From positions 342,014 through 406,013 of the IMG/VR virus record IMGVR_UViG_3300028558_000016: DNA of 64,000 nucleotides; one strand, given 5' to 3'. Below are positions 15,943-59,428 of this stretch, one piece after another. The position numbers were made by a program, and so were the translations under genes. Below the pieces are notes generated by a model. The model made no database searches, had not been told where the DNA came from, and saw only the letters and a program-made list of their open reading frames with translations. The number at the start of each line of letters is the position of its first letter. Position 1 is the stretch's first letter. This stretch comes from a virus.

Positions 15943-15966
15943 TATTCTCTTCGCGAAAAGAACAAG

Positions 15967-16000
15967 AAAACCTCTGTACGAAAGTGCAGAGGTTTTTTTA
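15967..16000. terminator. bidirectional rho-independent terminator
   Basis: cctctg-tacgaaagtg-cagagg hairpin followed by a T run. Sits between the convergent + strand gene and the - strand tRNA. Confidence 0.6.
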
Positions 16001-16005
16001 TTTGC

Positions 16006-16079
16006 AGAACTCCAAGTGGGGATCGAACCCACGACCAAAGGTTTTAGAGACCTACGTTCTACCACTGAACTATTGGAGC
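16006..16079 (-). tRNA. tRNA with anticodon CUA (amber suppressor); G1-U72, U73
   Basis: Reverse complement folds as a cloverleaf. D-stem gttc/gaac, anticodon loop cuCUAaa, T-arm gtggg-ttcgatc-cccac. The 27:43 position is a U-U mismatch. Confidence 0.55.
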
Positions 16080-16080
16080 A

Positions 16081-17094
16081 TTAAGAGAAGATTTCTTTAA
16101 TGTGAGAGTCTAATGTTTTTTCATCGAAATGTGACAGCAATTCTTGTTCTGAGATCATTTTAATCATTCCACCCATTTCAGTTATTTTGGAAATAACATT
16201 TTCGTACCAATAGGCTTCCGTCTGTCCTGTATTTTTAATTTTGAATATTGGACCCTTTGTTTGTTTTGAAAAACCTACAAACTCAAAATCACTTGTGAAG
16301 TTCATCATGAGTCTGTCATCAGCAGGATCTTCAAGACCTACAATGTTTGCATACCACGTTAGGTCTAATATTTTGGTTGCATTTTCAAACGAAGGTGTTT
16401 TGCTTTGTATTTGTAAATTACGTACATTTACTCCGTGCATCGTAGTGTCAAGTTGTAATTTTCCATAGTATATTAATCCGTAAGAATAATTATATCCTTG
16501 CCTATTGCTGCAGGTATCACCTTTGGCAGTGTCTTGACATAAAAATATTTGGCCACCTTCTAATGTTATTTTTCCTTTAGCAGGTTTATAACCGCTTCCG
16601 GCATGATCGATTTCTCCTACGAACATTTGTCCTTGGTAAAAATCTTCTACGACTAATTCTGATTGTGGCTTGTTGATAGGTGAAAATTGTTCAGTCATTT
16701 TAATAGGTTTTTTCGTAAATTTATCTTCCATAACAGATCTCATCAACCATTGTTTTTCTAAAAGATTAGCAGGTCTGCAATTTCTTCCAGTTATCCAAGG
16801 AGTGCATTCATGAATTTTACCTTTGTTATTTGAATCTTTCCTGAATGTTTCTGTTACGTCAGAAGATTCAGTTACATGAGTAATGGTTGACACATAATAA
16901 TGAGAATGTGCACGATCTTTATCGTCGGTATGCTCTTTAAATTTGAACACAATCTCGAGATCCTTTTGTATTCCATCAGCATCATCCAACATTTCGTGAC
17001 AGTGATAAATTTCTCCAGGTACAAGGTCCTCAACCTTAAGCGATTCCATTTTAATCTGTTTAAATGCGTAGCTTAAAACCTCTACCATGAACAT
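16081..17094 (-). CDS. hypothetical protein (337 aa)
   Basis: ORF on the - strand immediately upstream of the suppressor tRNA. Start overlaps the 17060 gene. Confidence 0.45.
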   Translation of the reverse strand: MFMVEVLSYAFKQIKMESLKVEDLVPGEIYHCHEMLDDADGIQKDLEIVFKFKEHTDDKDRAHSHYYVSTITHVTESSDVTETFRKDSNNKGKIHECTPWITGRNCRPANLLEKQWLMRSVMEDKFTKKPIKMTEQFSPINKPQSELVVEDFYQGQMFVGEIDHAGSGYKPAKGKITLEGGQIFLCQDTAKGDTCSNRQGYNYSYGLIYYGKLQLDTTMHGVNVRNLQIQSKTPSFENATKILDLTWYANIVGLEDPADDRLMMNFTSDFEFVGFSKQTKGPIFKIKNTGQTEAYWYENVISKITEMGGMIKMISEQELLSHFDEKTLDSHIKEIFS

Positions 17095-24071: not shown

Positions 24072-24623
24072 ATGGCGAACAATAATTTCAAAAGGCCTTA
24101 CAGGCCAATTCAGAAACAAAGGGAACACAAGATCAATGAAGAGATCAGACATCCCAATGTGAGAGTTACAGGTGATGACATTGAGTCACAGGTTGTAACC
24201 ATCCAAGAGGCATTGCGCATGGCAAGGGAAGCTGGAGTTGATCTCGTTGAGATTGCTCCAAGCGCAAACCCACCTGTGTGCAAGATAATCGAATATGGAA
24301 AACTCCTTTACGAGAAAAAGAGAAAAGACAAGGAGAATAAAAAGAACCAAGATCAGGTTGAAATAAAAGAACTTCGATTGACACCAAGCACAGACGAACA
24401 TGATTTGCAATTCAAATGCAACAATGCAATGAAATGGTTAGCTGATGGAAATAAAGTGAAAGCCGTTGTAGTATTCAAAGGAAGAATGATCAAATATAAA
24501 GAGATGGGAGAAATCCTTTTGCTTAAACTTTCTGTGATGCTCGAAGACCATGGAAAAGTTGAACAGCTACCAAAACTCGAAGGCTTCAAAATGACCATGA
24601 TGGTCATTCCAAAAAAGAAGTAA
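24072..24623 (+). CDS. infC: translation initiation factor IF-3
   Basis: REAGVDLVEIAPSANPPVCKIIEYGKLLYEKKRK and the C-domain KAVVVFKGRM...LPKLEG closely follow the IF3 pattern. Start taken at the ATG at 24072 (MANNNF). Confidence 0.8.
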   Translation: MANNNFKRPYRPIQKQREHKINEEIRHPNVRVTGDDIESQVVTIQEALRMAREAGVDLVEIAPSANPPVCKIIEYGKLLYEKKRKDKENKKNQDQVEIKELRLTPSTDEHDLQFKCNNAMKWLADGNKVKAVVVFKGRMIKYKEMGEILLLKLSVMLEDHGKVEQLPKLEGFKMTMMVIPKKK

Positions 24624-25194: not shown

Positions 25195-26262
25195 ATGAAA
25201 AAATCTGTAATAAAAGTTTTTTATACAGAAAAACAAGTAAACACTAACGCAAACATAGAAGCTGCATCGAAATCAAAATCACCACTCAAACCGGTTCTTT
25301 TGATGAAAGCTTTAGATGTTCTTGGATATGGAAAAAATCTGGATATTGATCCAGATTTTTTTCCATTTAAAGACGAGGACTTCCTGCTTGCGCACACTAA
25401 AAATTACGTTGAAGCATTTTTCAATGGTGTTCAACCATTGTGTCAAAGTAATTTCTTACCGTGGAGCCAAGAATTGGCAGACTCAGTTCGTTACACTAAT
25501 GCGAGTTTGTATAACGCAATTAGATATGCTTACTTAAATCCTGACCAAGTTACATTAAGTCCTACATCAGGATTCCATCATGCAATGCCTCACAGAGGCG
25601 ATGGATTTTGTACATTCTCAGGACAGGTTATTGCTGCAGAAAAAATGTATCAAGAGTTTGGAGTGTCTGGTGCTGTTCTTGATTTGGATGGTCACACAGG
25701 AAATTCCATAGATGATGCTCGTGGTTTTGCTAAAACAATTGATTTAGCAATTCCGCACGAATATAATTTTGCTCAGCTTAAAGGTAGTGATAAACACTAT
25801 CTCGACTCTCTTTTAGAAGCAATGGATAAAATTGAAACAGGTGTATTGGAAAATAAAATACATTATCTAATGTGGTGCCACGGTGCAGACTCTCACGAGG
25901 ATGATGATTTTGGTGGACAGGTTGACACAGAATATTGGGTTAAATGTTCTGAAGCATTTTATGCTTGGGTGAATCAATTGGATGCTAAATTGATTGCAAT
26001 GGGAAGAAAACCTCTTCCAGTCATTTTAAGTTTATTTGGAGGTTATCGTGATGATGATTATTATTCAGTTATTTCGTTGCACATAAAAGATTTGACAACA
26101 TGTCTTAATCTTCTTTGTGGAGAAAACATAAATTATGATGTGAACGTAAAAGATAAACGTCCAACAATAAAACGTAAACCACCTGAAAAATGGTTTGATG
26201 GAATGCCGCTATCTCTTTTGAATGTTCTTTACCCAGGAAAATATGACGATATAAACACATAG
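25195..26262 (+). CDS. histone deacetylase/acetoin-utilisation (arginase-deacetylase superfamily) protein; TAG stop
   Basis: SGFHHAMPHRGDGFCTFSG and VLDLDGHTGNS resemble the HDAC motifs (GGFHHA..asGFC, DiDvHHGdG). Confidence 0.5.
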   Translation: MKKSVIKVFYTEKQVNTNANIEAASKSKSPLKPVLLMKALDVLGYGKNLDIDPDFFPFKDEDFLLAHTKNYVEAFFNGVQPLCQSNFLPWSQELADSVRYTNASLYNAIRYAYLNPDQVTLSPTSGFHHAMPHRGDGFCTFSGQVIAAEKMYQEFGVSGAVLDLDGHTGNSIDDARGFAKTIDLAIPHEYNFAQLKGSDKHYLDSLLEAMDKIETGVLENKIHYLMWCHGADSHEDDDFGGQVDTEYWVKCSEAFYAWVNQLDAKLIAMGRKPLPVILSLFGGYRDDDYYSVISLHIKDLTTCLNLLCGENINYDVNVKDKRPTIKRKPPEKWFDGMPLSLLNVLYPGKYDDINT

Positions 26263-26264
26263 GG

Positions 26265-26340
26265 CTTGGCCGGAATCAGGGGACTGCGGATTCTAAACCC
26301 GCTGAACCGTGGGTTCGACTCCCACCCAGGCTACCAATTA
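26265..26340 (+). tRNA. degenerate tRNA-like gene with encoded CCA; anticodon-position loop uuCUAaa (CUA)
   Basis: Canonical T-arm gtggg-ttcgact-cccac. Acceptor ggcttgg/ccaggct with A73 and CCA encoded. D-arm short and poorly paired. Anticodon stem has 4 bp plus a mismatch. Confidence 0.4.
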
Positions 26341-26701: not shown

Positions 26702-27013
26702 ATGTTTGATTTTCACCAAAAAGATACACACGCAACTAATTTCTCTATAGACAAAAAAGATCTATATGAGAAGGCAATGGAAATTTTTAAAAGCTATAAT
26801 CCAAAAATAAAAATATGGATTGAAGATACAGCATTTGATTCTTTCGGAAGACCCTATTATGACCATTTGAGTTTACATACAGATCAAGGTCATAAAGGTA
26901 AAATTAAATGGATAGGATTCTTTTCTACCATCAATAAAAGAAAGCTCCTGGCTGGAGAAATAAAACCAAAACAAACAATCAAAGAAAAACTTAAAGTATT
27001 TTTAAACCTATGA
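26702..27013 (+). CDS. hypothetical protein
   Basis: ORF. Confidence 0.35.
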   Translation: MFDFHQKDTHATNFSIDKKDLYEKAMEIFKSYNPKIKIWIEDTAFDSFGRPYYDHLSLHTDQGHKGKIKWIGFFSTINKRKLLAGEIKPKQTIKEKLKVFLNL

Positions 27014-27951
27014 AAACGTTAACAGAGAACAAGTCCAAAACTTTATCTAAGTTTTTGGAAACCCTAAGGGATAAAAGAGGATTTGACGCTGAAATTTATA
27101 CAGAAAGAAAAGCGTATGCAATAAATAAATTCTTTAGAGAAAATAATCTTGATTGTGCTGTCATTGGACTTTCTGGAGGTGTCGATAGTGCTGTTGCATT
27201 TTCTCTTCTCGAATTTGCTTCTCGCAGACCAGACTCACCTATCAAAAAAATTCTTGCATTAGCAATGCCAATATATGGAAATGGAACAACGAACCAAACT
27301 GATGCTACTAATAAAGCAACGAGGTTCATAACAAATTTTCTTGGTACAAAAAGAAAAAGGTACAATGATAAAGTAGAGTTTGAAATGTTTGATCTTTCGC
27401 ATGCCTACGAATCATATCAATATGGACATGAAACAGACGCATGGTCTAACGGACAATTAGCGAGCATTGTAAGAACTCCGTTTCTATATTATAATGCCGC
27501 ATTGTTACAAACAAAAGGATATAAATCAATTGTGGTTGGAACTACAAATCGTGATGAAGGTTCTTACATTGGCTTCTTTGGAAAAGCTTCTGACGCAATG
27601 GTCGATCTTCAACCGATAGCAGATATACACAAAAGCGAAGTGTATCAGGTTGCAAAACTTTTAGAAGTTAGTGATGAAATAATAAATGCAACTCCGGCTG
27701 GTGACGTTCACGATGGCAGAGTTGATGAAGAAATGATTGGTGCTCCATATTGGTTTCTTGAATTATTCCTTCTTCAAAAACAATACAAAGAGACTGCCAA
27801 GTTAGAAACGTTTGAAGACGGAGAAATTTATGGAAAATATTACGCATCAATAGAAAGCATTCACGAAAAAAATAAACACAAATACCAGGTAGGTTCACCA
27901 GCACATTTTATTGATGTGATGGAACGTAAAATAGAAGGAGGTTGGCAATGA
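27010..27951 (+). CDS. nadE: NH3-dependent NAD+ synthetase (NadE)-like PP-loop ATPase
   Basis: PP-loop GLSGGVDSAV. GTTNRDEGSYIGFFGKASDAMVDLQPIADIHKSEVYQVA matches the NadE tgNksE..vGY.T.yGD...P..dl.KtqV pattern. Confidence 0.6.
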   Translation: MKTLTENKSKTLSKFLETLRDKRGFDAEIYTERKAYAINKFFRENNLDCAVIGLSGGVDSAVAFSLLEFASRRPDSPIKKILALAMPIYGNGTTNQTDATNKATRFITNFLGTKRKRYNDKVEFEMFDLSHAYESYQYGHETDAWSNGQLASIVRTPFLYYNAALLQTKGYKSIVVGTTNRDEGSYIGFFGKASDAMVDLQPIADIHKSEVYQVAKLLEVSDEIINATPAGDVHDGRVDEEMIGAPYWFLELFLLQKQYKETAKLETFEDGEIYGKYYASIESIHEKNKHKYQVGSPAHFIDVMERKIEGGWQ

Positions 27952-28718
27952 TACAAATAGTTAATACAGAAAAACCAGCAATAGAAAAACTTCCAGGCGG
28001 TTGGGAGCCTGATTTCTCAATTCAGCTTAAAGAGACAACTGATTGTAACGAAGAAATGTTCAAGCGAGCATCAGTCTACACGAATTTATTTTCTTCAGAA
28101 GAATGTGATGATATAATAAAAAAATTCATGCAGTCTCCGCGATTTGAAAATGTAACCGTTCAAGGAATAAAAGATGTTCCAGACGATAGAATTGGAAGCA
28201 TAAGAACAACTGCATGGAGCACGAAAATTGCAGATGAGATATGGGAAAAGAAATTCAAATTCTTTATGCAAGACATCGCATGTAGCACAAAAACTCCAAC
28301 TGATTGGTGGCAAGGGGATAACGAAAGAAGATTATGGAAACCAGTTGGCATTTCTCCCATGTTGAGATTCATGAAGTATGAAAACGGTGGACAACATTAT
28401 GCTCATTACGATGCAGGCCACATATACAAGGATGATAAATTCAGAACACTTTGTTCGTTTGTAATGTATTTGACCACCAATGAAAATGGTGGAACCACGA
28501 GGTTCATAGAAGACCAACAGAGTGATCTTAATGAATGGGAAAGAAAACACGAAGATTGGCCGAGAGAATCAAGAGAAGATGAAGTGCTGTTCAGATCTAA
28601 ACCTATAAAAGGAAATGTTCTGGTATTTCCACACAGAATGTGCCATGACGTTGAAAAATATTTTGGGGACACTCCAAGGATTATTATAAGAGGTGATGTT
28701 TTATTTGAAGCAATATGA
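27942..28718 (+). CDS. hypothetical protein (possible 2OG-Fe(II) oxygenase-like)
   Basis: HYDAGH ... PHRMCH spacing. Confidence 0.3.
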   Translation: MAMIQIVNTEKPAIEKLPGGWEPDFSIQLKETTDCNEEMFKRASVYTNLFSSEECDDIIKKFMQSPRFENVTVQGIKDVPDDRIGSIRTTAWSTKIADEIWEKKFKFFMQDIACSTKTPTDWWQGDNERRLWKPVGISPMLRFMKYENGGQHYAHYDAGHIYKDDKFRTLCSFVMYLTTNENGGTTRFIEDQQSDLNEWERKHEDWPRESREDEVLFRSKPIKGNVLVFPHRMCHDVEKYFGDTPRIIIRGDVLFEAI

Positions 28719-28966
28719 ATTGGAAAGTAATATTCTTCAAAGAATATAATGATTGGGTTCCATATCAAAATGAATCTGTATGTGAATGTGTTGAAGAAGC
28801 TTGTCTTAAAAAAGTCTACAATCAATTAAATCCTGGAATTGAAGCTGACCATGATTATAAAATTGAATTTAAAGATGGTGAAATCGTTCATATTCTTTTT
28901 GGAGTAATAGTTTCTGGAAAAATTAAGTTTACTAATAAATTTGCTAATGAATTGGAAAGTAAATAG
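28715..28966 (+). CDS. small hypothetical protein (TAG stop)
   Basis: ORF. Its start context is duplicated at 28944. Confidence 0.25.
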   Translation: MNWKVIFFKEYNDWVPYQNESVCECVEEACLKKVYNQLNPGIEADHDYKIEFKDGEIVHILFGVIVSGKIKFTNKFANELESK

Positions 28967-30410
28967 AGATACATTTTATAAAGAACTTCTTCCAGTCCTT
29001 GGAGAAAAAGGAATTGCTGAAGCCGGTTTCTTTGAGGATGCTGCAACGAAAGACGAAGATGTCTTAAAGACCACAAAGGTTTTGTGCACACCTCTTTCTT
29101 TTTTAAAACCTGCAACAGGACATCCTTGCATATTGCTAACGACTGGTTCTTTTTGTCCATTGCATCCAGGCCACATCAATATGATGGAAAAAGCCAAGGA
29201 GCATCTTGAAAAAAATGGATACAATGTAATTGGTGGTTTCATTTCACCTGGACACGATGAATACATATCTGCCAAGAATAAAGAAAAAGCAATTCCAATA
29301 CACTATAGAATAAGAACCATAACTGAGATGATTAAAAACCACGATTGGCTTTCTGTCGATCCATGGGAAGGAATGTTCTGTAAGGTTGCTGTAAATTTCA
29401 CAGATGTTTATATAAGGCTTGAGGCATACATCAGCGAACACCTAAAGAAAGACATTCCAATATTCTTTGTTAGTGGTGGTGATAATGCGAGATTTGCTTT
29501 GACCTTCATGAAGAAAGGAAATTGTGTGATAGTTAACAGACCTCCGTATGACGATAAATTCGAACATTATAAAAAAGTTTTAAAGGATTGTCCTAACATC
29601 CATTTCGTTGAAGGTGGAATTCCTATATCTTCAACTGAATTAAGAAAGGAAGCTTTTGTTCCAGATGAAAAGAAAAACTTATTAATAAGAGTTGAAAACA
29701 CTGAGAAGAGAGGAGTTCTAAGAATAATGTATAAATATTTCAATAATATAGAAAAGAAGGAACTACACAGTCAGAAAAAACACTTTTATGGAAAGATGTC
29801 TCTTGGCGAGATGATAAGTCTTGACTCACTTCTTAAATCAGTGCACAACTTGAAAATATCAAGATCCTATGACATTTTCGGTGCAAAGAAGATGGGATTC
29901 ACAAATAGACCAGGAACTCCATCATTAGAGGAACAACTGTCTGAAATAGAGAATGGGGAATACACTCTGTTCGATGATGACATCCACAGTGGTTCAACCA
30001 TGAGATTTGCTAAATCGTTAATAGAGGGAACAGGCTCTAAGGTGAAAGAAGTGACATCATTAAACATCTCACCAGATGGTTTTGAGATTCTCGATTCAAG
30101 AGATTTTTTCATAGGAGGAAAGAACAATGGCCTTGTGATTAAAATGCCTGATGGAAAAAACGTCAGAGCTCCTTATGTTTATCCTTATGTTTGTCCGTTT
30201 ATTAGAGGCTCAATAGACAGTCCAATGCAGTTTTCAATAGATATTTGGAAGATGAACATGGATCTATTTGAAAAGACTAATCAAACATTGGGTGACATGC
30301 CATTCCTCCAAGACCTATTCAAAAGAGCTGGATTTAGTTTGACAGATTCAATGTATGACATCTGTAAATGGCATCATGATTATTTGGTTTTGGTACTTTT
30401 CACCAAATAA
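28941..30410 (+). CDS. fused nucleotidyltransferase (NMNAT-like) and type I phosphoribosyltransferase domain protein
   Basis: TGSFCPLHPGH ((H/T)xGH motif) and GGIPISSTELRKE (ISSTxxR) in the N-terminal half. C-terminal YTLFDDDIHSGSTM is a PRPP-binding motif. Confidence 0.55.
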   Translation: MLMNWKVNRDTFYKELLPVLGEKGIAEAGFFEDAATKDEDVLKTTKVLCTPLSFLKPATGHPCILLTTGSFCPLHPGHINMMEKAKEHLEKNGYNVIGGFISPGHDEYISAKNKEKAIPIHYRIRTITEMIKNHDWLSVDPWEGMFCKVAVNFTDVYIRLEAYISEHLKKDIPIFFVSGGDNARFALTFMKKGNCVIVNRPPYDDKFEHYKKVLKDCPNIHFVEGGIPISSTELRKEAFVPDEKKNLLIRVENTEKRGVLRIMYKYFNNIEKKELHSQKKHFYGKMSLGEMISLDSLLKSVHNLKISRSYDIFGAKKMGFTNRPGTPSLEEQLSEIENGEYTLFDDDIHSGSTMRFAKSLIEGTGSKVKEVTSLNISPDGFEILDSRDFFIGGKNNGLVIKMPDGKNVRAPYVYPYVCPFIRGSIDSPMQFSIDIWKMNMDLFEKTNQTLGDMPFLQDLFKRAGFSLTDSMYDICKWHHDYLVLVLFTK

Positions 30411-31045: not shown

Positions 31046-31336
31046 ATGGCTGATTTTGCAACTTCTTATCCTAAGGAGTTTCAACAATGGCATTCCACCT
31101 CCAATTATTTAGCGTGCCTATCTGTTAAGGATGAAAATTCTTTACAAGCTCTTTCACATAAACTTATGTGTGAAGATATTAAGCACATCACATTCACTGA
31201 ACCCGATCTCGGAAATCAGATCACTGCAATTGCTATTGAGCCAACTGATATGGCTCGAAGAATATGTAGCTCATTTCCATTGGCATTAAAGGAATGCACA
31301 AACGGATTAAACAAACATTCAATAATAAAACAATGA
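31046..31336 (+). CDS. hypothetical protein
   Basis: ORF. Confidence 0.35.
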   Translation: MADFATSYPKEFQQWHSTSNYLACLSVKDENSLQALSHKLMCEDIKHITFTEPDLGNQITAIAIEPTDMARRICSSFPLALKECTNGLNKHSIIKQ

Positions 31337-31915: not shown

Positions 31916-31985
31916 GGCGATGTGACCGAGTGGTAGGTACAGATCCGCAAGATCTGGTACGGGGGTTCGAATCCTTCCATTGCCT
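31916..31985 (+). ncRNA. tRNA-like element with a noncanonical anticodon-position hairpin
   Basis: 7-bp acceptor (ggcgatg/cattgcc). T-arm ggggg-ttcgaat-ccttc. The anticodon position holds a 6-bp stem cagatc/gatctg with a 5-nt loop cgcaa instead of a 7-nt loop. Confidence 0.35.
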
Positions 31986-31990
31986 CAAAT

Positions 31991-32122
31991 GGCCGTTTTG
32001 TCGGTTGGAAGCTTAAGGAAAATGCATGAGTACTTAAGTGATAAAACTACTGGTGACAAAACTCGAAATGCGAAACTGCAGAGTAACATTTCAAGTTAGG
32101 AGTTCGAATCTCTTAACGGCTA
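31991..32122 (+). ncRNA. long tRNA-like element (about 132 nt)
   Basis: Acceptor ggccgtt/aacggct and a canonical T-arm aggag-ttcgaat-ctctt. About 100 nt separate the 5' acceptor from the T-arm and no clear D or anticodon arm is visible. Confidence 0.3.
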
Positions 32123-32189
32123 CAAAAAGTTCTTTAACATGGGAAAGTCTTTAATGATGCAGAGGTGAAAAATCCTTCTTTCCCACCAA

Positions 32190-32260
32190 GGTCCAATAGC
32201 TCAAGTGAAGAGCATCTTTCGCAAGAAAGAAGGTTGGTGGCTCGTTGCCATCTTGGACCA
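32190..32260 (+). ncRNA. degenerate tRNA-like element
   Basis: Acceptor ggtccaa/ttggacc. D-arm gctc/gagc. Anticodon position is tcttt-cgcaag-aaaga (6-nt loop, a GCAA tetraloop closed by C-G). T-loop ctcgttg is noncanonical. Confidence 0.35.
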
Positions 32261-32264
32261 CTAA

Positions 32265-32337
32265 CGCCTCATAGCTCAGTTGGCAGAGCGTCGGTCTCTA
32301 AAACCGATGGTCGTGGGTTCGAACCCCACTGAGGCGG
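32265..32337 (+). tRNA. tRNA with anticodon CUA (amber suppressor); C1-G72, G73
   Basis: Clean cloverleaf. Acceptor cgcctca/tgaggcg. D gctc-agttggca-gagc. Anticodon stem tcggt/accga with loop cuCUAaa. T-arm gtggg-ttcgaac-cccac. Confidence 0.75.
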
Positions 32338-39197: not shown

Positions 39198-39695
39198 ATG
39201 GGGAAGATAAAGAAGTTCAAGGAATTCAACGAGAAGGAATCTGAGTATACCGTTTATTCAAATAAGAAAGGTGGAAAATTCTGGGGTGACCAGGGTGCTG
39301 GTGTTCTTCCCATTTGCAGAAAAACAGGAAGAATTCTTGTTGCCATGAGAGGTGAACAGGTAAATGAGCCTCACACGTGGGGAATTTTTGGAGGAGCGAT
39401 GGACGAAGGAGAAACTCCAGAAGAATCTGCAAAAAGAGAATTAGTTGAAGAATCAGGATATACTGGAAAATTTGAAATCATTCCAGCTTTCATATATGTG
39501 TCTCTGGATCAAAAGTTCACATACAATAATTTCATAGGGATAGTCGACGAGGAATTCCAACCGGAATATGATTGGGAAACTGAATATGCTAAATGGATGA
39601 CTCTCGATGAATTGCTTAGTGCAAAGCCAAAACATTTCGGCTTAAAGAAGCTCTTGGACAAGAGCATGGATATAATCAAGAAATTTGCAAAGTAG
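39198..39695 (+). CDS. Nudix hydrolase (TAG stop followed directly by TAA)
   Basis: Nudix box GIFGGAMDEGETPEESAKRELVEESGY (Gx5Ex7REUxEExGU). Confidence 0.7.
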   Translation: MGKIKKFKEFNEKESEYTVYSNKKGGKFWGDQGAGVLPICRKTGRILVAMRGEQVNEPHTWGIFGGAMDEGETPEESAKRELVEESGYTGKFEIIPAFIYVSLDQKFTYNNFIGIVDEEFQPEYDWETEYAKWMTLDELLSAKPKHFGLKKLLDKSMDIIKKFAK

Positions 39696-44591: not shown

Positions 44592-44678
44592 GGGTAAGTT
44601 GCCGTAGTGGCCGAACGGTCCAGACTGTTAATCTGGTGAGAGCAATCTCCGTCGTGGGTTCGAATCCCACCTCGCCCT
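44592..44678 (+). tRNA. type II (long variable arm) tRNA with anticodon loop cuGUUaa; unusual combination
   Basis: Acceptor gggtaag/ctcgccc (one A-C mismatch). Long D-loop. Anticodon stem ccaga/tctgg. 17-nt variable arm. T-arm gtggg-ttcgaat-cccac. U73. Confidence 0.45.
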
Positions 44679-45302: not shown

Positions 45303-45417
45303 GGGGAAGTAGCTCAGTTGGCAGAGCAATAGAAAAAAGCGTATTCTGCCCAAGAATATTTACAGCAACACAAAAGTAAATCTGTGTGCGGCCGTTCGAA
45401 TCGGTCCTTCCCCACCA
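45303..45417 (+). ncRNA. tRNA-like gene with an insertion of about 40 nt and encoded CCA
   Basis: Acceptor ggggaag/cttcccc, then A and CCA. Canonical D-arm (gctc-agttggca-gagc) and T-arm (ggccg-ttcgaat-cggtc). The central 62 nt contain the hairpin tattct-gccca-agaata and no clean anticodon arm. Confidence 0.4.
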
Positions 45418-45418
45418 T

Positions 45419-45492
45419 GGGACATTCCATACTAATTGGTAAGTCACTCGGTTGTAACCCGAGAAATGGGGGTTCGAGTCCCTCATGTCCCA
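45419..45492 (+). tRNA. type I tRNA-like with anticodon loop uuGUAac (GUA) and a weak D-stem
   Basis: Perfect acceptor gggacat/atgtccc with A73. Anticodon stem ctcgg/ccgag. T ggggg-ttcgagt-ccctc. D-stem poorly paired. Confidence 0.45.
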
Positions 45493-45493
45493 C

Positions 45494-45577
45494 TGTACAG
45501 TATGCAAATTGGCGAAGCGAACAGATTTTGGATCTGTTGGAGTAATCCCGCTGCAGGTTCGAGCCCTGCCTGTATAA
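45494..45577 (+). tRNA. type II (Leu-like body, A73) tRNA with anticodon loop uuUUGga (UUG); unusual combination
   Basis: Acceptor tgtacag/ctgtata. D-loop aaattggcgaa. Anticodon stem acaga/tctgt. 15-nt variable arm with a gga/tcc stem. T gcagg-ttcgagc-cctgc. Confidence 0.45.
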
Positions 45578-45591
45578 CTAAAATTAAAAAC

Positions 45592-46656
45592 ATGGAACAA
45601 TTTCCACATAACGAAGAAGTAGACTTTAATAAAAAGTTGAATGTAAAATTTGGAATAGATCCAACTGCAGATAGATTGCATTTGGGACATTTGATACCTT
45701 TGCGATTTGCGAAGAAGATGTTAGACAATGGACATAACCTTGACATAGTGTTAGGAACGTTCACTGCGCAGCTTGGAGATCCTTCTGGAAAAGATTCAAT
45801 GAGACCTATATTGGACTCTGAAACTACTAAAGACAATGCAATTGCATTATTGCCTATCATCAGAAGGATTTTAAAGAAAGATTTTAATCTTCATTTCAAT
45901 CATGAATGGTTCAAAAGAATGAATGCGATTGATATGATCAACATTCTTTCTAAGTTTACAGCAAATCAATTGTTGTCGAGAGACTCTTTTCAAAAAAGAA
46001 TTTCAAATGAAGATGGAATTGGTATGCATGAATTAACTGTTCCTATTTTGCAAGGATTTGATTCTGTTCATTTGAAAACAGATCTCGAAATAGGAGGCAA
46101 CGATCAATTGTTTAACTTTAAAATAACAAGAGATCTGCAAAGAGCATTTAATCAAAAGCCGGAGATTTGCATGTTGATGCCAATAATCAATGGAACTGAT
46201 GGGAGAAAAATGAGCAAGACGTTTAAGAATTGCATTTTTCTCGATGACAGTCCCGTAGATGTTTTTGGGAAAACGATGTCCATATCTGATGAGTTGATGA
46301 AAGAATGGTTCATGGTTTTTATGGATGAATCAATAGGTCATCCAATGGAAGCAAAGAAAAAACTCGCATTTCAAATAACAAAAGAAGTGTGGGACGAAGA
46401 TAATGCTAAAATTGCATTGGAACATTTTGAAAGAGTAATACAAAAGAAGAATGTACCGGTAGAAATTAAGGACATTAAAGACACAGATATTTTAAAAGTC
46501 ATTATGGAATTACGTAAATGTTCTGCCACAGAAGCAAGAAGATTATTGTCGCAAGGAGCAGTTAAAGTCAATGATGAAAAAGCATTAGAAGAAAAGACCT
46601 TATCATCTGGAGACATTGTAAAGGTTGGTAAGCTGAACTTTGCTAAGATAATGTAA
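45592..46656 (+). CDS. tyrS: tyrosyl-tRNA synthetase
   Basis: FGIDPTADRLHLGHLIPL (HIGH region of the TyrRS type). KMSKT motif. C-terminal S4-like segment LLSQGAVKVNDEK...GDIVKVGK. Start taken at the ATG at 45592; the longer ORF overlaps the tRNAs. Confidence 0.75.
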   Translation: MEQFPHNEEVDFNKKLNVKFGIDPTADRLHLGHLIPLRFAKKMLDNGHNLDIVLGTFTAQLGDPSGKDSMRPILDSETTKDNAIALLPIIRRILKKDFNLHFNHEWFKRMNAIDMINILSKFTANQLLSRDSFQKRISNEDGIGMHELTVPILQGFDSVHLKTDLEIGGNDQLFNFKITRDLQRAFNQKPEICMLMPIINGTDGRKMSKTFKNCIFLDDSPVDVFGKTMSISDELMKEWFMVFMDESIGHPMEAKKKLAFQITKEVWDEDNAKIALEHFERVIQKKNVPVEIKDIKDTDILKVIMELRKCSATEARRLLSQGAVKVNDEKALEEKTLSSGDIVKVGKLNFAKIM

Positions 46657-46676
46657 AAAGAATTTTGTATATTTAC

Positions 46677-46749
46677 TGTCTCGTAGCGCAACTGGCAGAG
46701 CGCCTGATTCTGGATCAGGAGGTTGGAGGTTCGAGCCCTCCCGAGACAA
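46677..46749 (+). tRNA. tRNA-Gln(CUG)
   Basis: U1-A72 acceptor tgtctcg/cgagaca. Anticodon stem cctga/tcagg with loop uuCUGga. T ggagg-ttcgagc-cctcc. Confidence 0.65.
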
Positions 46750-46768
46750 CAATTAAAACATAAATAAT

Positions 46769-48328
46769 ATGTCAAGAAAAGTAAGAGTAAGATTTGCCCC
46801 GTCACCGACAGGGCCACTTCACATGGGTGGCGTAAGAACCGCCTTGTATAATTATCTCTTTGCTAAAAAGCACGGAGGTGATTTCATTTTAAGAATAGAA
46901 GATACAGACAAAGACAGATTTGTTCCTGGCGCAGAAGCTTACATCATTGAAGCTTTGAATTGGTGTGGAATAACTCCTAACGAAGGAATAGATGGAAATT
47001 CTGTTCTTGATACATACAAGCAATCAAAAAGAAATGAGGCTGGAATATACAATCCTTATGTTGCAAAATTAATTGCAGAAGGAAATGCATATTACGCATT
47101 TGATACTAAAGAAGATCTTGACGCATTGAGAACTTCTGTTTCTGAAAAAAGAAAAGCAGGATTAAAAGTAAGAGAATTCGCTTATGGTGTTTTCACAAGA
47201 GAATTATTGAACAACAGCTTGAACATGACTGCCGATGAATTGAAAGCAAGATTGGATGCTGGAATTCCTTATGTCATTCGTTTGAAGATGCCTAAGGAAG
47301 TTGAAATTAAATTCGTTGATTTGATCAGAGGTGCTGTCACTGTAAAAAGTCACACCATCGATGATAAGGTTATATTCAAGAGCGATGGACTTCCAACATA
47401 CCATTTGGCAAATGTTGTTGACGATCACTTGATGGACATTTCTCACGTCATTAGAGGTGAGGAGTGGTTGCCATCGGCACCGTTGCACGTCATGCTATAC
47501 AAGATGTTAGGTTGGGAAGATACCATGCCTGAGTTTGCACACCTTCCTTTGATCATGGGACCAAGCGGTAAATTGAGCAAGAGAGATGGAGATACATTGG
47601 GATTTCCTGTATATCCTTTAAAGTATACAGATCCAAAAACATCTGAGACATCGAGCGGTTACCGTGAGAATGGTTTCTTGCCAAGTGCATTCAATAACAT
47701 GGTTGCATTTCTTGGTTGGAATCCAGGTGGCACCGATGAGGTATTCACAATGGATGAAATGATCGATAAATTCTCTTTGGATAGAGTAGGAAAATCAGGA
47801 GCTAAATTCGATTTGAAGAAGGCTAATTGGTTCAATCACCAACACATGATGAAGTCTGATAATGATGACTTGGCAAAATTATGGATCAGCAATGGAGGAT
47901 TATACAATGGAGCCATGGGTGTTTGGTCTACTGATGCGACAAAACAACGTGTTGATTCATTTGAATATGTTTCAAAGGTTTGTGGATTGCTTAAAGAGAA
48001 GGTTTCTAACATCAATGATTTTTGGAATTCTGGAAAATATTTCTTTATTGCGCCTGAGCCAAGTCTTGGAACAGAACATTCTTCGTTCTTGGCAGAAGTA
48101 ATTGCAAACATAACTAAGGATGAAGTGTTCAATCACGATTCTTTAAGAGCTGTGTTTGATGCTTCAGTTAAGGCAACCGGTGTTGACGCAAGAGAGGCTG
48201 GAATGGTTTTAAGGATTGCTGTAACAGGAATGAAAGTTGGTCCACCTTTATTTGATGCAATGGAATTGATAGGTAAAAATGAATCAATAAACAGAATAGC
48301 ATCTAACGTGGTAGTCAATCATGAGTAA
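46769..48328 (+). CDS. gltX: glutamyl-tRNA synthetase
   Basis: VRFAPSPTGPLHMGGVRTALYNYLFAKKHGG (HIGH region). KLSKR motif. 519 aa, typical GluRS architecture. Confidence 0.75.
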   Translation: MSRKVRVRFAPSPTGPLHMGGVRTALYNYLFAKKHGGDFILRIEDTDKDRFVPGAEAYIIEALNWCGITPNEGIDGNSVLDTYKQSKRNEAGIYNPYVAKLIAEGNAYYAFDTKEDLDALRTSVSEKRKAGLKVREFAYGVFTRELLNNSLNMTADELKARLDAGIPYVIRLKMPKEVEIKFVDLIRGAVTVKSHTIDDKVIFKSDGLPTYHLANVVDDHLMDISHVIRGEEWLPSAPLHVMLYKMLGWEDTMPEFAHLPLIMGPSGKLSKRDGDTLGFPVYPLKYTDPKTSETSSGYRENGFLPSAFNNMVAFLGWNPGGTDEVFTMDEMIDKFSLDRVGKSGAKFDLKKANWFNHQHMMKSDNDDLAKLWISNGGLYNGAMGVWSTDATKQRVDSFEYVSKVCGLLKEKVSNINDFWNSGKYFFIAPEPSLGTEHSSFLAEVIANITKDEVFNHDSLRAVFDASVKATGVDAREAGMVLRIAVTGMKVGPPLFDAMELIGKNESINRIASNVVVNHE

Positions 48329-49385
48329 TATGCCAATAGGAATCCAAGCAATGGGTCCAGCCGAAGTAATAACGGAAATGTTTCTTCGTCCTGGATCCAT
48401 TTCTGCTTATAGAGAGCAGATGGATCTGCTTGATAAAAACAAGGAACATATTTCTGTTCACGATGGATTTTCTATAATAACTTTCTGGGAACCTGCAACG
48501 AAGGCTTTCAATGCCGGCTGGAAGATGAGAGTTGTTTATGGCGAAGTAAAAGAAAAGAAATATTTTGTAAAAGATAATTGGAAAAACAAAACAGTTTATT
48601 CTGGTGCAAGGCCTGAATGCGAAAAATACGTTCAGGGAAATAACACATATCAATTAAATTATTCTCGTTTGACAATCGAAATTAATTCAACTCTCGATGA
48701 TAAGTTGGATGAATTAAAAAAGATTATTTCTGACTCAACAAAGCCAGATGAGAACGAATTGCGTTTTGCAAAGGCTACATCTAATTGGATCAAGGGTCCT
48801 GTCATGGGTTGGTTGAATGATAACAAGCTTGATTTCACCACTCGTTCTAAACCATCTCATCATAAATCATTAGTCACTGGAAATCTTTTCGACTATGAAA
48901 AATATTCTGCCATTGATGAAGAGAAGTGGTGGCCTAAAGATTCTCCTGATGCAAAACTTTATTTGCCTCTTCCTAAAGACGAATATCCTTACACAGTCGT
49001 GTATTCTGAAGAGGAGAGTAATTTTCCAATAAAATCTGAACATTTAAAAGAATTAATAAGCTTGGTTGAATTTACAGATCTTATTAGTTTCTCTACTGCT
49101 TCCAAAACTGTTTTTCCTGAGATGATCAAAAATCCAGATGAAAAACCTTGGGATATAATTCAAAGATTAAATTTGATGCAAAGCAATGATGATGATGCCA
49201 TCAAACAAATGGCCAAAGATGCTTTAGCAAAATATCCCGACAAGGTTGAAGAATATAGGAAAGGAAAGAAGGGAGTTCTCAGCCTGTTCATGGGCGAAGT
49301 AATGAAAGCCGGTAAAGGAAAAGTAAATCCGCAAATGGCTTCAGAAATAGTAAAAAATCTTTTGGAAGAAAAGGAGGGAGCATAA
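48321..49385 (+). CDS. protein with a C-terminal GatB/YqeY-like domain
   Basis: C-terminus EEYRKGKKGVLSLFMGEVMKAGKGKVNPQMASEIVKNLL matches the GatB/YqeY pattern (GkekalgfLvGqvMk.tkGkanP..v.e.l). The N-terminal ~280 aa are unrecognised. Confidence 0.5.
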   Translation: MSNMPIGIQAMGPAEVITEMFLRPGSISAYREQMDLLDKNKEHISVHDGFSIITFWEPATKAFNAGWKMRVVYGEVKEKKYFVKDNWKNKTVYSGARPECEKYVQGNNTYQLNYSRLTIEINSTLDDKLDELKKIISDSTKPDENELRFAKATSNWIKGPVMGWLNDNKLDFTTRSKPSHHKSLVTGNLFDYEKYSAIDEEKWWPKDSPDAKLYLPLPKDEYPYTVVYSEEESNFPIKSEHLKELISLVEFTDLISFSTASKTVFPEMIKNPDEKPWDIIQRLNLMQSNDDDAIKQMAKDALAKYPDKVEEYRKGKKGVLSLFMGEVMKAGKGKVNPQMASEIVKNLLEEKEGA

Positions 49386-49399
49386 CTGCTCCCACTTTC

Positions 49400-49588
49400 T
49401 TATTTAACTGTAGATGTTGCAACAACTGTAGGAGTTGCAATCACTGAAGCAGCTTCAACTGCTTTACAAGTATCAACACACGCTTTCGTTGTGTCACAAA
49501 CTTCATTAACAACTTCAACTTCCGTTTTAGGAGTTCCACATGCAGCAAACATCGTCGTTGCAATAATTAAAAGTACAATCTTTTTCAT
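49400..49588 (-). CDS. small lipoprotein/secreted peptide
   Basis: Signal peptide MKKIVLLIIATTMFAACG with a lipobox-like Cys. Confidence 0.4.
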   Translation of the reverse strand: MKKIVLLIIATTMFAACGTPKTEVEVVNEVCDTTKACVDTCKAVEAASVIATPTVVATSTVK

Positions 49589-49703
49589 AGATTTTGTTGG
49601 GTTTTTAGTTTAGTTCCATATTAAACCGGGTCACGGTCAGGCTATATATAAATCACTGAGAAGTTAGTTTCAATCGATATATACAGCACCACAATCATTT
49701 CCA

Positions 49704-49901
49704 TTGAAGCCAAAATTTAAAATCGGACAAACCATTTATTACATGTATCTCAATTGGATATGCAAATCTAAAGTGAAAAATCATTATGAAAAAGATGGGA
49801 AGATCTTTTATTCTGATGACAGAAATGATGAAATATTAGAAAAATTCGTATTTGATAATAAGCCCGAACTGATTGATTTTCATATAAATAGAACAAAATA
49901 A
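49704..49901 (+). CDS. hypothetical protein
   Basis: Short ORF. Confidence 0.3.
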   Translation: MKPKFKIGQTIYYMYLNWICKSKVKNHYEKDGKIFYSDDRNDEILEKFVFDNKPELIDFHINRTK

Positions 49902-51518: not shown

Positions 51519-51776
51519 ATGAAAGATGAAAGTAAAATAACAACTCAGCAATTCAAATTTATTTCTGAATTGCTTTGGGGTGGAGTTCCCGTTGACCGGG
51601 TACAAGCTGAAGAGTCTGCGATGTTCAAAGCGAACGCGCCAAAAATATTAGAGGAATATCCTCTATTGGATAAATCATTTTTTGAAAAACATAGTAAAAA
51701 CAAAGGTTATGAAATTGTCAAAAGTAAAAATATACAAGATGAACAAGGTAGGCAAGGAGAAATTGTCGACGGCTGA
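51519..51776 (+). CDS. hypothetical protein
   Basis: ORF. Confidence 0.35.
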   Translation: MKDESKITTQQFKFISELLWGGVPVDRVQAEESAMFKANAPKILEEYPLLDKSFFEKHSKNKGYEIVKSKNIQDEQGRQGEIVDG

Positions 51777-52839
51777 TTTATTGGAAAGAACCGGCTACAT
51801 AAAACAAGTCTCATCTGGATTGTTCGTTCAGATGCACTTTATGAAGTTGGTGATGAATAACATCGAAAAGATCGTTAGAGAAGAACTAAACAAAATAAGC
51901 GCCTTGGAAATTGGATTGAACCAGTTACAAGGCGCTGAAGTTTGGAAGCAAACCGGTCGCTATAATGATTATGGCGCTGAGATGTTCAAGCTCAAGGATC
52001 GTTCAGATAAGGAGATGGTGTTCACAGGAACAAACGAAGAACTCGTGACTGTTGTTGCAAGAGAATATGTGGAGTCATATAGAGATTTGTCTTTCACATT
52101 CTATCAGATAAACAATAAGTTCAGAGATGAAATTCGCTGTAACACAGGTCTGATTAGATGTAAAGAGTTTCTCATGATGGATGCATATTCATTTCATGTT
52201 AACAAAGAAGATCTCGAAATTAGATATAATGAAATAAGAAATTGTTATATTGCCATATTCGATCGACTCAAACTGAAATACAGAATTGAAACTGCAGATT
52301 CAGGAGAGATTGGCGGATCTGTTTCAGAGGAATTCATAGTTGAAACAAGTGATGGAGATATTGAGATAGGACACATTTTCCAATTAGACACAAAATACTC
52401 GTCCAAGCTTGAAGCACAATTCATAGATGAAAAAGGCGAAAAGCAGGACATAGTGATGGGATGTTATGGAATAGGAATTTCTCGATTGGCCCAGGTTCTT
52501 GCAGACATTAACAGAGATGGAAATAATCTCAATTGGTCAAGAGAACTTGCAGCATACAGTCATGCAATCATTGTGGCAGATGTGAGGAACGAAGAACAAA
52601 TGAGGATTGCTGAAAAGATATACGATGAATTGAAAAGAAAAAAGAAGAACGTATATCTCGATGACAGAAATCTTCGTGTTGGCGAAAAGCTTACCGAAGC
52701 TGACATCCTTGGTTCTGCGAATAAAATTTTAATAGGTAAAAATATAAGTGAAAATAATTTTGAGGTGAAGAAAAATTCAAACGATGCATGGGAAAAAATG
52801 TCCATGGAAAGCTTGGATTACTTCTTGGAACTTCAGTAA
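51682..52839 (+). CDS. proS: prolyl-tRNA synthetase (compact form without an editing/insertion domain); start uncertain (51682, 51709 or 51739)
   Basis: YQINNKFRDEIRCNTGLIRCKEFLMMDAYSFH matches ProRS motif 2 (YQIQTKFRDEvRPRfGvmRsREFLMKDAYSFH). C-terminal class II anticodon-binding-like region. Confidence 0.65.
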   Translation: MKNIVKTKVMKLSKVKIYKMNKVGKEKLSTADLLERTGYIKQVSSGLFVQMHFMKLVMNNIEKIVREELNKISALEIGLNQLQGAEVWKQTGRYNDYGAEMFKLKDRSDKEMVFTGTNEELVTVVAREYVESYRDLSFTFYQINNKFRDEIRCNTGLIRCKEFLMMDAYSFHVNKEDLEIRYNEIRNCYIAIFDRLKLKYRIETADSGEIGGSVSEEFIVETSDGDIEIGHIFQLDTKYSSKLEAQFIDEKGEKQDIVMGCYGIGISRLAQVLADINRDGNNLNWSRELAAYSHAIIVADVRNEEQMRIAEKIYDELKRKKKNVYLDDRNLRVGEKLTEADILGSANKILIGKNISENNFEVKKNSNDAWEKMSMESLDYFLELQ

Positions 52840-52851
52840 AAAGTAGAAATA

Positions 52852-53391
52852 ATGAAAGCAGTTTATATTGGCGAATACGTCAAAGAAAAAATGTTCGATA
52901 GGTTATTGAACGAAGTGGCCTGGGCCAATAAGGAAGCTCCAAGAGACGAATGCTTTATGGCATTGGAATCTTTGGAATATACTTATGGAAAAGGATTCAC
53001 AAGAACGTACACTTCTTTAGAAATGCACGTTGAAGTGTTGGGCATCATGAAAAAGATGAACGACGAAATGGGAACCGAGTATAACGTTTGCTTCTTGAAT
53101 TATTACAAGAGCGAAAAAGAACACTTAGGTTGGCATGCAGATGATTCTCCTGAAATGGATGAGACACACCCAATAGGTGTTGTATCATTTGGAGCTGAGA
53201 GATACATTTGGACGAAAAATAAGGACTACAGGGGAAACATTCCTGATGAAGATAAGTATTTATTAGGGGATGGTTCTTTGTTTATCATGCCTGCAGGTTT
53301 CCAAAAGGATAACTTGCACAAGATACCAAAGAATGACAAACCTTGTGGAGGAAGAATTAGTTTAACATTTAGAAAATTCATAAACAAATGA
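52852..53391 (+). CDS. AlkB-like 2OG-Fe(II) dioxygenase
   Basis: LGWHADDSPE...PIGVVSFG...GDGSLFIMPAG...H...GRISLTFRKF follows the AlkB pattern HxD...H...RxSxTFR. Confidence 0.55.
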   Translation: MKAVYIGEYVKEKMFDRLLNEVAWANKEAPRDECFMALESLEYTYGKGFTRTYTSLEMHVEVLGIMKKMNDEMGTEYNVCFLNYYKSEKEHLGWHADDSPEMDETHPIGVVSFGAERYIWTKNKDYRGNIPDEDKYLLGDGSLFIMPAGFQKDNLHKIPKNDKPCGGRISLTFRKFINK

Positions 53392-59015: not shown

Positions 59016-59428
59016 AGAACAAGACATTAATAAAATACGCGAGAACCCTTTTGAAAGAATTGCTTGCTAAATGCTCTGAGCCGCAACAGTTGTTATTTAA
59101 GAGAATGTACAATCATAAGAATTTGGAAGCGCCAATCAATGAAGCAGTTGATCAGATGGAACCCGATAAACTGGATTGGGCTGTGACTCAGGTAGAAGAA
59201 ACGATTAAAAAGAACAATAGATTTTTAACTTGCAAAAAAGATTTGTTTAAATCAACATACCAATCTAATGCTTTCATAGATGGAAAAATATATGAAGTTT
59301 CCTTTGATAAGAACTACGAGGAAAATGAAAATGAAATTTGGATAAAAGATGAAACAGGCAGACCGTTCACATTCACGAAAGTAAATTCATTTGGAATGTA
59401 TAAAGTCGAAGATTATTTTGAATTATGA
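59012..59428 (+). CDS. hypothetical protein
   Basis: ORF. Confidence 0.35.
   Translation: MKNKTLIKYARTLLKELLAKCSEPQQLLFKRMYNHKNLEAPINEAVDQMEPDKLDWAVTQVEETIKKNNRFLTCKKDLFKSTYQSNAFIDGKIYEVSFDKNYEENENEIWIKDETGRPFTFTKVNSFGMYKVEDYFEL

Follow-up and report, generated by a model that had tools for sequence, protein, structure and literature searches.

In the 64,000-nt stretch of viral DNA analysed here (positions 342,014 to 406,013 of IMG/VR record IMGVR_UViG_3300028558_000016; hereafter the window), the plus strand at positions 32265-32337 encodes a tRNA with the anticodon CUA, which we call Sup1. The analyses described below indicate that Sup1 is real and almost certainly functional, with UAG as its predicted codon. 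We favour, with moderate confidence, the interpretation that it is an elongator-type UAG-decoding tRNA acting as a suppressor, being one of two clear copies, next to an aberrant one, in a phage of ~482 kb that encodes a translation kit; this genome size follows from a window protein that is also found on a public contig of 482,156 bp.

An initial annotation of the window, made from the sequence alone, had described a canonical cloverleaf at this position and had named in advance a covariance fold with another anticodon or loop register as a result that would speak against it. The Rfam covariance model RF00005 matched Sup1 with 71.6 bits (gathering score 29; E = 1.2e-13 window-wide), with model positions 1-71 aligned and no non-canonical pairs flagged by cmscan, which is the profile of a canonical elongator tRNA. 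ARAGORN agreed, predicting a 74-nt tRNA with the anticodon CTA starting at position 34, and in the covariance alignment the sequence CUCUAAA falls on the 7-nt anticodon loop, giving U33-C34-U35-A36-A37: both methods are thus concordant in placing CUA at positions 34-36, the anticodon of an amber suppressor, and both the fold and the anticodon of the initial annotation stand. The acceptor stem comprises 7 bp (CGCCUCA/UGAGGCG, with C1-G72), the D stem is GCUC/GAGC, the anticodon stem contains 5 bp (UCGGU/ACCGA) and the T arm reads GUGGG-UUCGAAC-CCCAC, with all four stems perfectly paired. The core positions U8, A14, G18G19, U33, G53-U54-U55-C56, A58 and C61 are all present (cmscan alignment: UAGCUCAGUUGG..., GGUUCGAA); the discriminator is G73, CCA is not encoded and the 3' trailer begins with CAAAUA. 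Efficient decoders of the A36 type are characterised by U33, A37 and A38, all three of which are found in Sup1. When folded in isolation, Sup1 showed a minimum free energy (MFE) of -32.7 kcal/mol (z = -4.0); the MFE structure retains the acceptor, anticodon and T arms with a shortened and re-paired D arm, and hence it is the alignments by Rfam and ARAGORN that support the complete cloverleaf. A transfer-messenger RNA (tmRNA) that ARAGORN proposed across the Sup1 cluster at low threshold was rejected as an artefact that borrows the T arm of Sup1. An exact 37-mer of Sup1 had no match in the searched IMG/VR collection, which lacks the contig of the window itself.

A tRNA search, which the initial annotation had proposed for the whole genome, was run over the window: it recovered Sup1 and also identified two elements that this annotation had missed, Sup2 and Sup3, so that the window contains two clear CUA tRNAs and one aberrant copy among a total of 18-19 tRNA genes (ARAGORN, Rfam). 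Sup2 (16008-16079, minus strand; Rfam 67.7 bits and ARAGORN) is 79% identical to Sup1; the two agree in the anticodon loop, in the three stem pairs nearest to that loop (GGU/ACC), in the variable loop and in the T arm, but Sup2 has an acceptor stem (GCUCCAA/UUGGAGU) unlike that of Sup1 and the discriminator U73. Sup2 starts 2 nt past the stop codon of the open reading frame (ORF) at 16081-17094 (minus strand) and is closely followed by a hairpin with a U-rich tract (15961-15999, minus strand; AAACCUCUGCAC-UUUC-GUACAGAGGUUUUCUUGUU; RNAfold -16.2 kcal/mol), which looks like an intrinsic terminator ending its operon. The hairpin was not called in a consensus terminator scan because its stem exhibits an internal mismatch; consensus promoter and terminator scans of the window were in general uninformative, and promoters of the Bacteroidota type fall outside the models used. 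Placement between a stop codon and a terminator-like hairpin, a layout typical of an operon end, suggests that Sup2 is probably expressed. Sup3 (26263-26336, plus strand) was detected by ARAGORN only and abuts the TAG stop of the ORF at 25195-26262: its T arm is perfect (GUGGG/CCCAC), its acceptor stem includes G-U pairs, its loop reads UUCUAAA and CCA is encoded after A73, whereas the D arm is defective and the anticodon stem contains an A-C mismatch. No Rfam tRNA match to Sup3 was obtained even at E <= 10, and its fold was no better than that of shuffled sequences (z = -0.25); whether it is a non-canonical tRNA-like RNA or a decayed paralogue is uncertain. Among the canonical tRNAs of the window CCA is encoded in none, and 14 of 16 3' trailers start with C, most with CA; the ACCA encoded by Sup3, and also by a minihelix close to Sup1 (element C, below), differs from this pattern.

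The genetic code was assessed over a readable stretch of ~80 kb, which consists of the window, extended on both sides with sequence taken from other assemblies (8.6 kb upstream, 7.6 kb downstream), and corresponds to ~17% of the 482 kb. Greedy calling gave 85 ORFs in the window, with TAA (55), TGA (25) and TAG (5) as stop codons, and the 80 kb contain 106 ORFs (TAA 72, TGA 28, TAG 6, the latter ~6%). As the initial annotation had claimed, the ORFs of the window are intact under the standard code: their 19,580 codons, 562 of them for Gln, include no in-frame TAG, no convincing TAG-interrupted ORF was identified, and none of the 106 ORFs over the 80 kb contains an in-frame TAG either. TAG moreover ends domain-supported genes, namely a NUDIX gene (39198-39695) and the deacetylase-like gene at 25195-26262. 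A count of genes that stay open only with TAG as a sense codon, also proposed in the initial annotation, gave none when run on the readable 80 kb; the sole candidate of the scan, 49386-49901, was rejected, its first segment being the antisense of an ORF with a lipoprotein signal (49400-49588, minus strand). As no in-frame TAG occurs in the 106 ORFs and six of them end with TAG, the readable 80 kb use the standard code. The visible 17% of the genome is therefore standard-coded, and the statement of the initial annotation that the genome otherwise uses this code holds for ~80 of 482 kb, its genome-wide form exceeding what could be checked. The two options put forward at the outset, readthrough of TAG stops or service to recoded genes elsewhere, remain the correct pair. 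Within the readable stretch, where TAG is never sense and seldom a stop (6 of 106 ORFs), Sup1 would act as a suppressor and would not serve a sense codon.

The second of these options, that Sup1 lets TAG be read as sense in a genome recoded in part, in the style of genetic code 15, is in our view a possible but tentative explanation. Under it, early and auxiliary genes like those of the window would keep the standard code, in-frame TAG would be found in late, structural or lysis genes in other parts of the genome, and the two or three CUA tRNAs would switch the code late in infection. The 106 ORFs free of in-frame TAG, which include very large virion-like ORFs, and the domain-supported genes that stop at TAG argue against it, as do the closest tRNA relatives, which occur in cultured standard-code phages; yet 83% of the genome lies outside the readable stretch, and recoding is documented in Bacteroidota gut phages in which the suppressor tRNAs and the code-change genes are themselves standard-coded (preprint 10.1101/2021.08.26.457843; PMC13037316). 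Low guanine-cytosine (GC) content (36.5%) together with TAG as the rarest stop matches a proposed precondition for such a change (preprint 10.1101/2021.08.26.457843), and the presence of several CUA tRNA copies also fits. In terms of code-change genes, six-frame translation of the 80 kb revealed no release factor with a GGQ motif (RF2-type), and no glutaminyl-tRNA synthetase (GlnRS) was found in the readable stretch, where the class I E/Q enzyme is instead a bacterial-type glutamyl-tRNA synthetase (GluRS). With no in-frame TAG, TAG still in use as a stop and neither RF2 nor GlnRS in the 80 kb, recoding is not demonstrated here.

In order to assign an amino acid to Sup1, we compared it with E. 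coli tRNAs, with the tRNA-Trp and tRNA-Gln(CUG) sequences checked against annotated genomes. The 13-nt anticodon arm of Sup1 (GGUCUCUAAAACC) is that of E. coli tRNA-Trp (GGUCUCCAAAACC) with the change C35U and, together with G73, is the same as in the E. coli suppressor su+7 (tRNA-Trp C35U, anticodon CUA), whilst the acceptor stem, variable loop and T arm of E. coli tRNA-Trp are unlike those of Sup1. The initial annotation had equated the loop with that of supE-type suppressors, which proved incorrect: supE (glnV44, a tRNA-Gln with CUA) possesses the loop UUCUAAU, derived from UUCUGAU of tRNA-Gln(CUG), and differs from CUCUAAA of Sup1, which is of the su+7 type, at positions 32 and 38. Nor is the body of Sup1 of the supE type, as it exhibits C1-G72 and C3-G70 and not U1-A72 and G3-C70; identity to the phage's own tRNA-Gln(CUG) is 64%. 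Sup1 does resemble supE in reading amber and in G73, and glutamine insertion is probable for it as well. The E. coli tRNA-Trp(CUA) loses recognition by TrpRS and is charged by GlnRS (PMC2965240), and in E. coli the charging of CUA tRNAs generally falls to GlnRS or LysRS, both of which key on U35, with G73 belonging to the Gln set and A73 to the Lys set (PMC1483225). Sup1 exhibits 6 of 10 listed Gln identity elements (G2-C71, G10, C34, U35, A37 and G73), and our best guess, drawn by analogy, is that it would insert Gln; Sup1, Sup2 and Sup3 may not all be charged with the same amino acid. Derivation of Sup1 from tRNA-Trp was considered and not retained: it is backed by the anticodon arm and by a relative in phage Atu_ph07 (see below), but not by nearest-isotype counts across the family, in which the 44 CUA members are led by Lys (15), Met (12) and Trp (8), nor by the first 126 tRNAs in IMG/VR that match Sup1 in variable loop and T arm, for which Lys was the most frequent isotype (56) and Trp was found twice.

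As a suppressor, Sup1 would be co-transcribed with a tRNA-Cys and three tRNA-like RNAs as one cluster, and its ends would be processed by RNase P and 3' processing enzymes of the host. Sup1 would require a CCA-adding enzyme, as CCA is not encoded, and would then be aminoacylated by a synthetase keyed to U35, most likely GlnRS as for E. coli su+7. Charged Sup1 would compete with release factor 1 (RF1) at UAG: the phage's own proteome would be barely affected, and UAG-terminated genes of the host or of competitors would be read through. Several points weigh against this reading. With the anticodon masked, the body of Sup1 resembles Lys, Met and Trp tRNAs to the same degree, so that descent from tRNA-Trp is not established, and the GlnRS elements U1-A72, G3-C70, G36 and U38 are absent; the assignment of Gln moreover applies E. 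coli rules to another host. Backup stops are not significantly closer behind TAG than behind other stops (n = 6), and hence there is no signature of selection against readthrough. The code test covers ~17% of the genome, and the remainder may contain recoded genes. Casual suppression would hardly seem to call for two or three amber tRNAs, and we know of no demonstrated benefit of suppression in any standard-code phage. Expression, charging, the inserted amino acid and the benefit to the phage are all inferred from sequence.

Sup1 is the last member of a cluster of RNA genes on the plus strand. The initial annotation had regarded its neighbours as degenerate tRNA-like elements, a view that had to be revised: the first member is a scoring tRNA-Cys (anticodon GCA, U73; 31916-31985; Rfam 46 bits and ARAGORN), and the others are structured and conserved, with compensatory changes, in a distantly related IMG/VR contig of 34.7 kb and 31% GC, here L036. 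Element B (31991-32122; fold z = -2.8) is a tRNA-like RNA of 132 nt with a 7-bp acceptor stem, the T arm AGGAG-UUCGAAU-CUCUU and discriminator A, in which the D and anticodon arms are replaced by a large conserved insert bearing a hairpin with the loop GAAAAUGCAUGAGUA; its homologue at L036 9009-9160 keeps the internal motifs, the acceptor stem being wholly replaced through compensatory changes. Element C (32141-32188), identified by sequence and fold directly 5' of element D, is a 48-nt minihelix (GGGAAAG...CUUUCCC) that ends with ACCA, and L036 contains three similar ACCA-ending minihelices, each ahead of a tRNA or tRNA-like gene. Element D (32190-32260; fold z = -4.2) is a tRNA-like cloverleaf with discriminator A, the variant T loop CUCGUUG and, in place of the anticodon loop, a GNRA tetraloop (GCAA) on a stem of 6-7 bp; two homologues in L036 exhibit the tetraloops GUAA and GAAA. 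All 23 base pairs of element D hold in all three copies, and 6 pairs are changed on both sides, a number that was reached in none of 500 shuffles, with slid controls giving 0-2. A covariance model built from the three copies scored these with 95-104 bits, as expected by construction, and all other matches, ordinary tRNAs included, with no more than 60 bits.

Beyond these copies, a 23-mer scan of IMG/VR for element D matched L036 solely, whilst a 14-mer scan for element B was swamped by chance matches, with no returned locus showing a second B motif; none of elements B, C and D matched an Rfam family, ribozymes included, even at E <= 10. A YrlA match in the cluster (E = 0.08) was discarded as spurious since it spans two separate elements. 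The order of elements in L036 (minihelix, tRNA-Cys, tRNA-CUA, B, minihelix, D with GUAA, minihelix, D with GAAA) differs from that in the window, although tRNA-Cys(GCA) adjoins the CUA tRNA there too. A small ORF at 31046-31336 (plus strand), weakly similar to the peptidyl-tRNA hydrolase PTH2 (Pfam PF01981; its E of 4e-4 does not reach the curated cut-off), is also conserved beside the CUA tRNAs of L036 and of a further relative, L007 (tblastx, ~52-55% amino acid identity); between L036 and the window, amino acid identity is ~55% in the PTH2-like and small flanking ORFs. Elements B, C and D thus appear to be conserved structured RNAs tied to an amber tRNA in at least two lineages, and this cassette of tRNA-like RNAs without anticodons is the part of the locus likeliest to yield something new. 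Other CUA-tRNA loci contain further odd genes: L024 1897-1978 (minus strand) is a relative of element D with an extended arm capped by GCAA, and L020 4782-4863 (minus strand), L039 4860-4943 (plus strand) and L031 6231-6317 (minus strand) are tRNA-like cloverleaves with 9-10-nt 'anticodon' loops that hold CUAAAAA or CUUAAAAAA.

That the amber tRNA belongs to an undescribed conserved cassette (tRNA-Cys, tRNA-CUA, B of 130-150 nt with the GAAAAUGCAUGAGUA loop, C of ~48 nt with ACCA and D with its GNRA tetraloop, beside the PTH2-like gene) that rewires termination or tRNA metabolism of the infected cell seems rather unlikely to us. Such a cassette, together with CUA tRNAs bearing G73, U73 or A73, could serve ambiguous decoding of UAG by several amino acids or titration of host defences directed at tRNA. 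Less probable still is a module whose main role lies outside decoding, in which the CUA tRNA and elements B, C and D could engage tRNA-directed enzymes of the host as decoys, sponges or substrates: the CUA anticodon could have been chosen as a match to no host tRNA, with nucleases of the anticodon or acceptor end, toxin nucleotidyl- or acetyltransferases, or synthetases as targets. The cassette is indeed kept with compensatory changes in L036, at ~55% protein identity and with a different order of elements, the window encodes an RNA-repair-like set and PTH2 that suggest pressure on the tRNA pool, and acceptor stems in the family are hypervariable against conserved bodies; this proposal nevertheless comes from context, the cassette exhibits no homology to known defence or counter-defence systems, family members in other phages lack it, and Sup1 itself is fully canonical and would decode efficiently. 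It is highly improbable that Sup1 is a non-functional relic or chance cloverleaf that has mutated to CUA and is being lost, for although phage tRNA arrays hold pseudogenes, one of them in XacN1 (PMC5852040), and Sup3 looks degraded, the 71.6 bits, perfect stems and complete set of conserved tertiary positions of Sup1, the retention of CUA by a paralogue in the same genome and the conservation of anticodon and body over dozens of unrelated phage contigs all argue against this.

Sup1 and Sup2 belong to a family of viral CUA tRNAs. Their core (GGUCUCUAAAACC-NN-UGGUCGUGGGUUCGA-N-CCCCAC) was found in three metagenome contigs of the Joint Genome Institute with GC contents from 34% to 62%, and the looser pattern CUCUAAA-N6-GGUCGUGGGUUCGA at 28 IMG/VR loci, many of them on contigs of 150-390 kb; the same pattern had only 3 matches in 185,579 bacterial and archaeal species (one genome each), all on contigs of metagenome-assembled genomes, and hence the family is virus-specific. 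DNA around family members is dense under genetic code 11, with little gain under code 15. Comparison with GenBank phages by blastn identified tRNAs of Phosso, XacN1, RsoM2USA and Atu_ph07 as the best relatives of Sup1, with those bearing CUA at 77-92% identity: the tRNA(cta) of Sinorhizobium phage Phosso is 92% identical over positions 6-67, and, among database phages, the closest relative that is not a suppressor is the tRNA-Trp(CCA) of Agrobacterium phage Atu_ph07 (87%). Acceptor stems in the family are hypervariable, bodies are conserved and the discriminators of 44 members are A (20), G (16), U (8) and C (0). Pairs of CUA tRNAs in XacN1 (L012 16048-16206), L005, L027, L035 and the window show near-identical bodies with unrelated 7-bp acceptor stems and differing discriminators (A/G, G/U); in the XacN1 pair the 55-nt body is 100% identical and every acceptor position is different. 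Acceptor replacement of this kind with a constant body is not neutral divergence. The nearest RNA-gene neighbour of the CUA tRNA is a tmRNA in XacN1 (L010 3914-5488), L005 (7388-8740) and L006 (5228-6369), permuted in two cases, and this proximity may point to a link between amber suppression and rescue of ribosomes that, after readthrough, run on to the ends of mRNAs. The XacN1 tRNA array also contains a GOLLD RNA (227 bits; L010 6437-6850) ~2.4 kb from the suppressor tRNAs; searches of the window yielded no tmRNA, no GOLLD RNA and no further large ornate RNA.

The window exhibits 36.5% GC and a coding density of 91.7% under code 11. A Megablast search with 15 kb gave no matches among 50,697 phage records, PHROGs returned almost nothing for the large ORFs of the window, and a search of IMG/VR for related loci with a neighbouring protein of 1306 amino acids found none, the homologue search returning the protein itself and one 33%-identical fragment only, without syntenic full-length relatives; as nucleotide and protein similarity are essentially nil, the phage was not placed among known phages. 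A run of very large ORFs (1209, 651, 900, 570 and 603 amino acids), one with a weak head-closure match, may represent virion genes. Domain searches identified translation genes at 45466-49385, 51709-52839, 59425-60831, 24072-24623 and 63608-64000, which encode TyrRS, a bacterial-type GluRS, ProRS, MetRS, IF3 and PTH2; tRNA genes for corresponding amino acids (Tyr, Gln, Pro) are interspersed among these genes. The GluRS is of the gltX type (E = 1e-126) and is directly followed by a 354-residue protein with a GatB/YqeY tRNA-binding domain: presence of these two beside tRNA-Gln genes, with no GlnRS, suggests an indirect or assisted route to Gln-tRNA. Consecutive genes at 52852-54652 encode an AlkB-like 2OG-Fe(II) oxygenase, a calcineurin-like metallophosphoesterase and an RNA ligase and look like an RNA/tRNA repair module of the type used by phages against anticodon nucleases. 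Genes of nicotinamide adenine dinucleotide (NAD) metabolism encode NAD synthase, a cytidylyltransferase-like protein (NMNAT-type), a NADAR domain and an ADP-ribosyl glycohydrolase (27010-30410, 61903-62403; L001 6762-7745), in agreement with the NAD+ modules described for gut jumbo phages (PMC11662467). The host is probably a member of the Bacteroidota, judging from an encoded RprY-like regulator of the Bacteroides type and a lipoprotein signal peptide. Two tRNAs of 84-85 nt, at 44593-44677 and 45494-45577, possess long variable arms and the anticodons GUU (Asn) and UUG (Gln) (Rfam 38 and 46 bits). Long variable arms are usually confined to Leu, Ser and Tyr tRNAs; if these tRNAs were charged via the long arm, Asn or Gln codons would be mistranslated. 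Two weak tRNA-like signals were also noted between tRNA-Tyr and the next tRNA: a 115-nt match to the cloverleaf model at 45303-45417, possibly an interrupted tRNA, and 70 nt at 45421-45490 (Rfam only, 33 bits).

Comparison with known amber-reading systems places Sup1 clearly apart from tRNA-Pyl. ARAGORN labels any CUA tRNA as tRNA-Pyl, which is marked by a six-bp anticodon stem, a 3-nt variable loop, a small D loop and the lack of G18G19 and T-psi-C, and is accompanied by pylS and pylBCD genes. The anticodon is the sole likeness: Sup1 is a canonical cloverleaf with G18G19, the T loop GUUCGAA, a variable loop of 5 nt and two bases that separate the acceptor from the D stem, and no pyl genes were found among the Pfam and NCBIfam matches listed for 65 scanned proteins. 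A parallel is offered by code-15 gut phages (crAss-like, Lak and others), which likewise exhibit a CUA tRNA in a standard-coded region with translation genes, low GC and a probable Bacteroidota host, but from which the window phage differs in that its 80 kb contain no in-frame TAG, TAG is still a stop and no RF2 or GlnRS was found. Borges et al. tied suppressor tRNAs to TAG and TGA recoding and reported that standard-code relatives can carry suppressors too, possibly as a step toward recoding (preprint 10.1101/2021.08.26.457843). Amber suppressors are a tool by which some phages switch code mid-infection; in standard-code jumbo phages they were first noted in 2018, in XacN1. If the rest of the present genome is standard-coded, the case for a non-recoding function (host takeover, competition or nonsense insurance) becomes stronger; if it is recoded, it would be one more, very large, code-15 phage.

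Amber-reading tRNAs in standard-code giant phages have already been published, and the window locus adds a divergent phage to these. XacN1 contains two suppressor tRNA genes with anticodon CUA, for which in-silico readthrough of 18 amber stops gave no extensions with database similarity (PMC5852040), RsoM2USA encodes one CUA suppressor (PMC8504454) and Atu_ph07 a UCA suppressor (PMC6102473), and suppressor tRNAs are mentioned in surveys of gut and other jumbo phages (PMC11662467; PMC13037316). For XacN1, RsoM2USA and Phosso, no recoded targets are known (PMC5852040, PMC8504454). In contrast to Sup1, whose surroundings contain the RNA cassette, neither the element D model nor blastn revealed it in the stretches around the CUA tRNAs of these three phages; further differences are the lack of an encoded CCA in Sup1, the hosts and base composition (Proteobacteria and 42-52% GC for those phages, probable Bacteroidota and 36.5% GC for the window phage) and the almost complete lack of protein similarity between the window phage and any database phage. 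The suppressor tRNAs of XacN1, RsoM2USA and Phosso share with Sup1 the loop CUCUAAA and a near-identical variable loop and T arm (GGUCGUGGGUUCGA), which is the family body, their genomes are likewise large (340-470 kb) with large tRNA sets, and XacN1 has two CUA copies that differ in acceptor stem and discriminator just as in the window. The suppressor role that we favour for Sup1 would parallel that in the standard-code jumbo phages XacN1 and RsoM2USA, and extends this family to a very divergent phage of ~482 kb with a probable Bacteroidota host and with synthetases, IF3, PTH2 and RNA-repair genes of its own.

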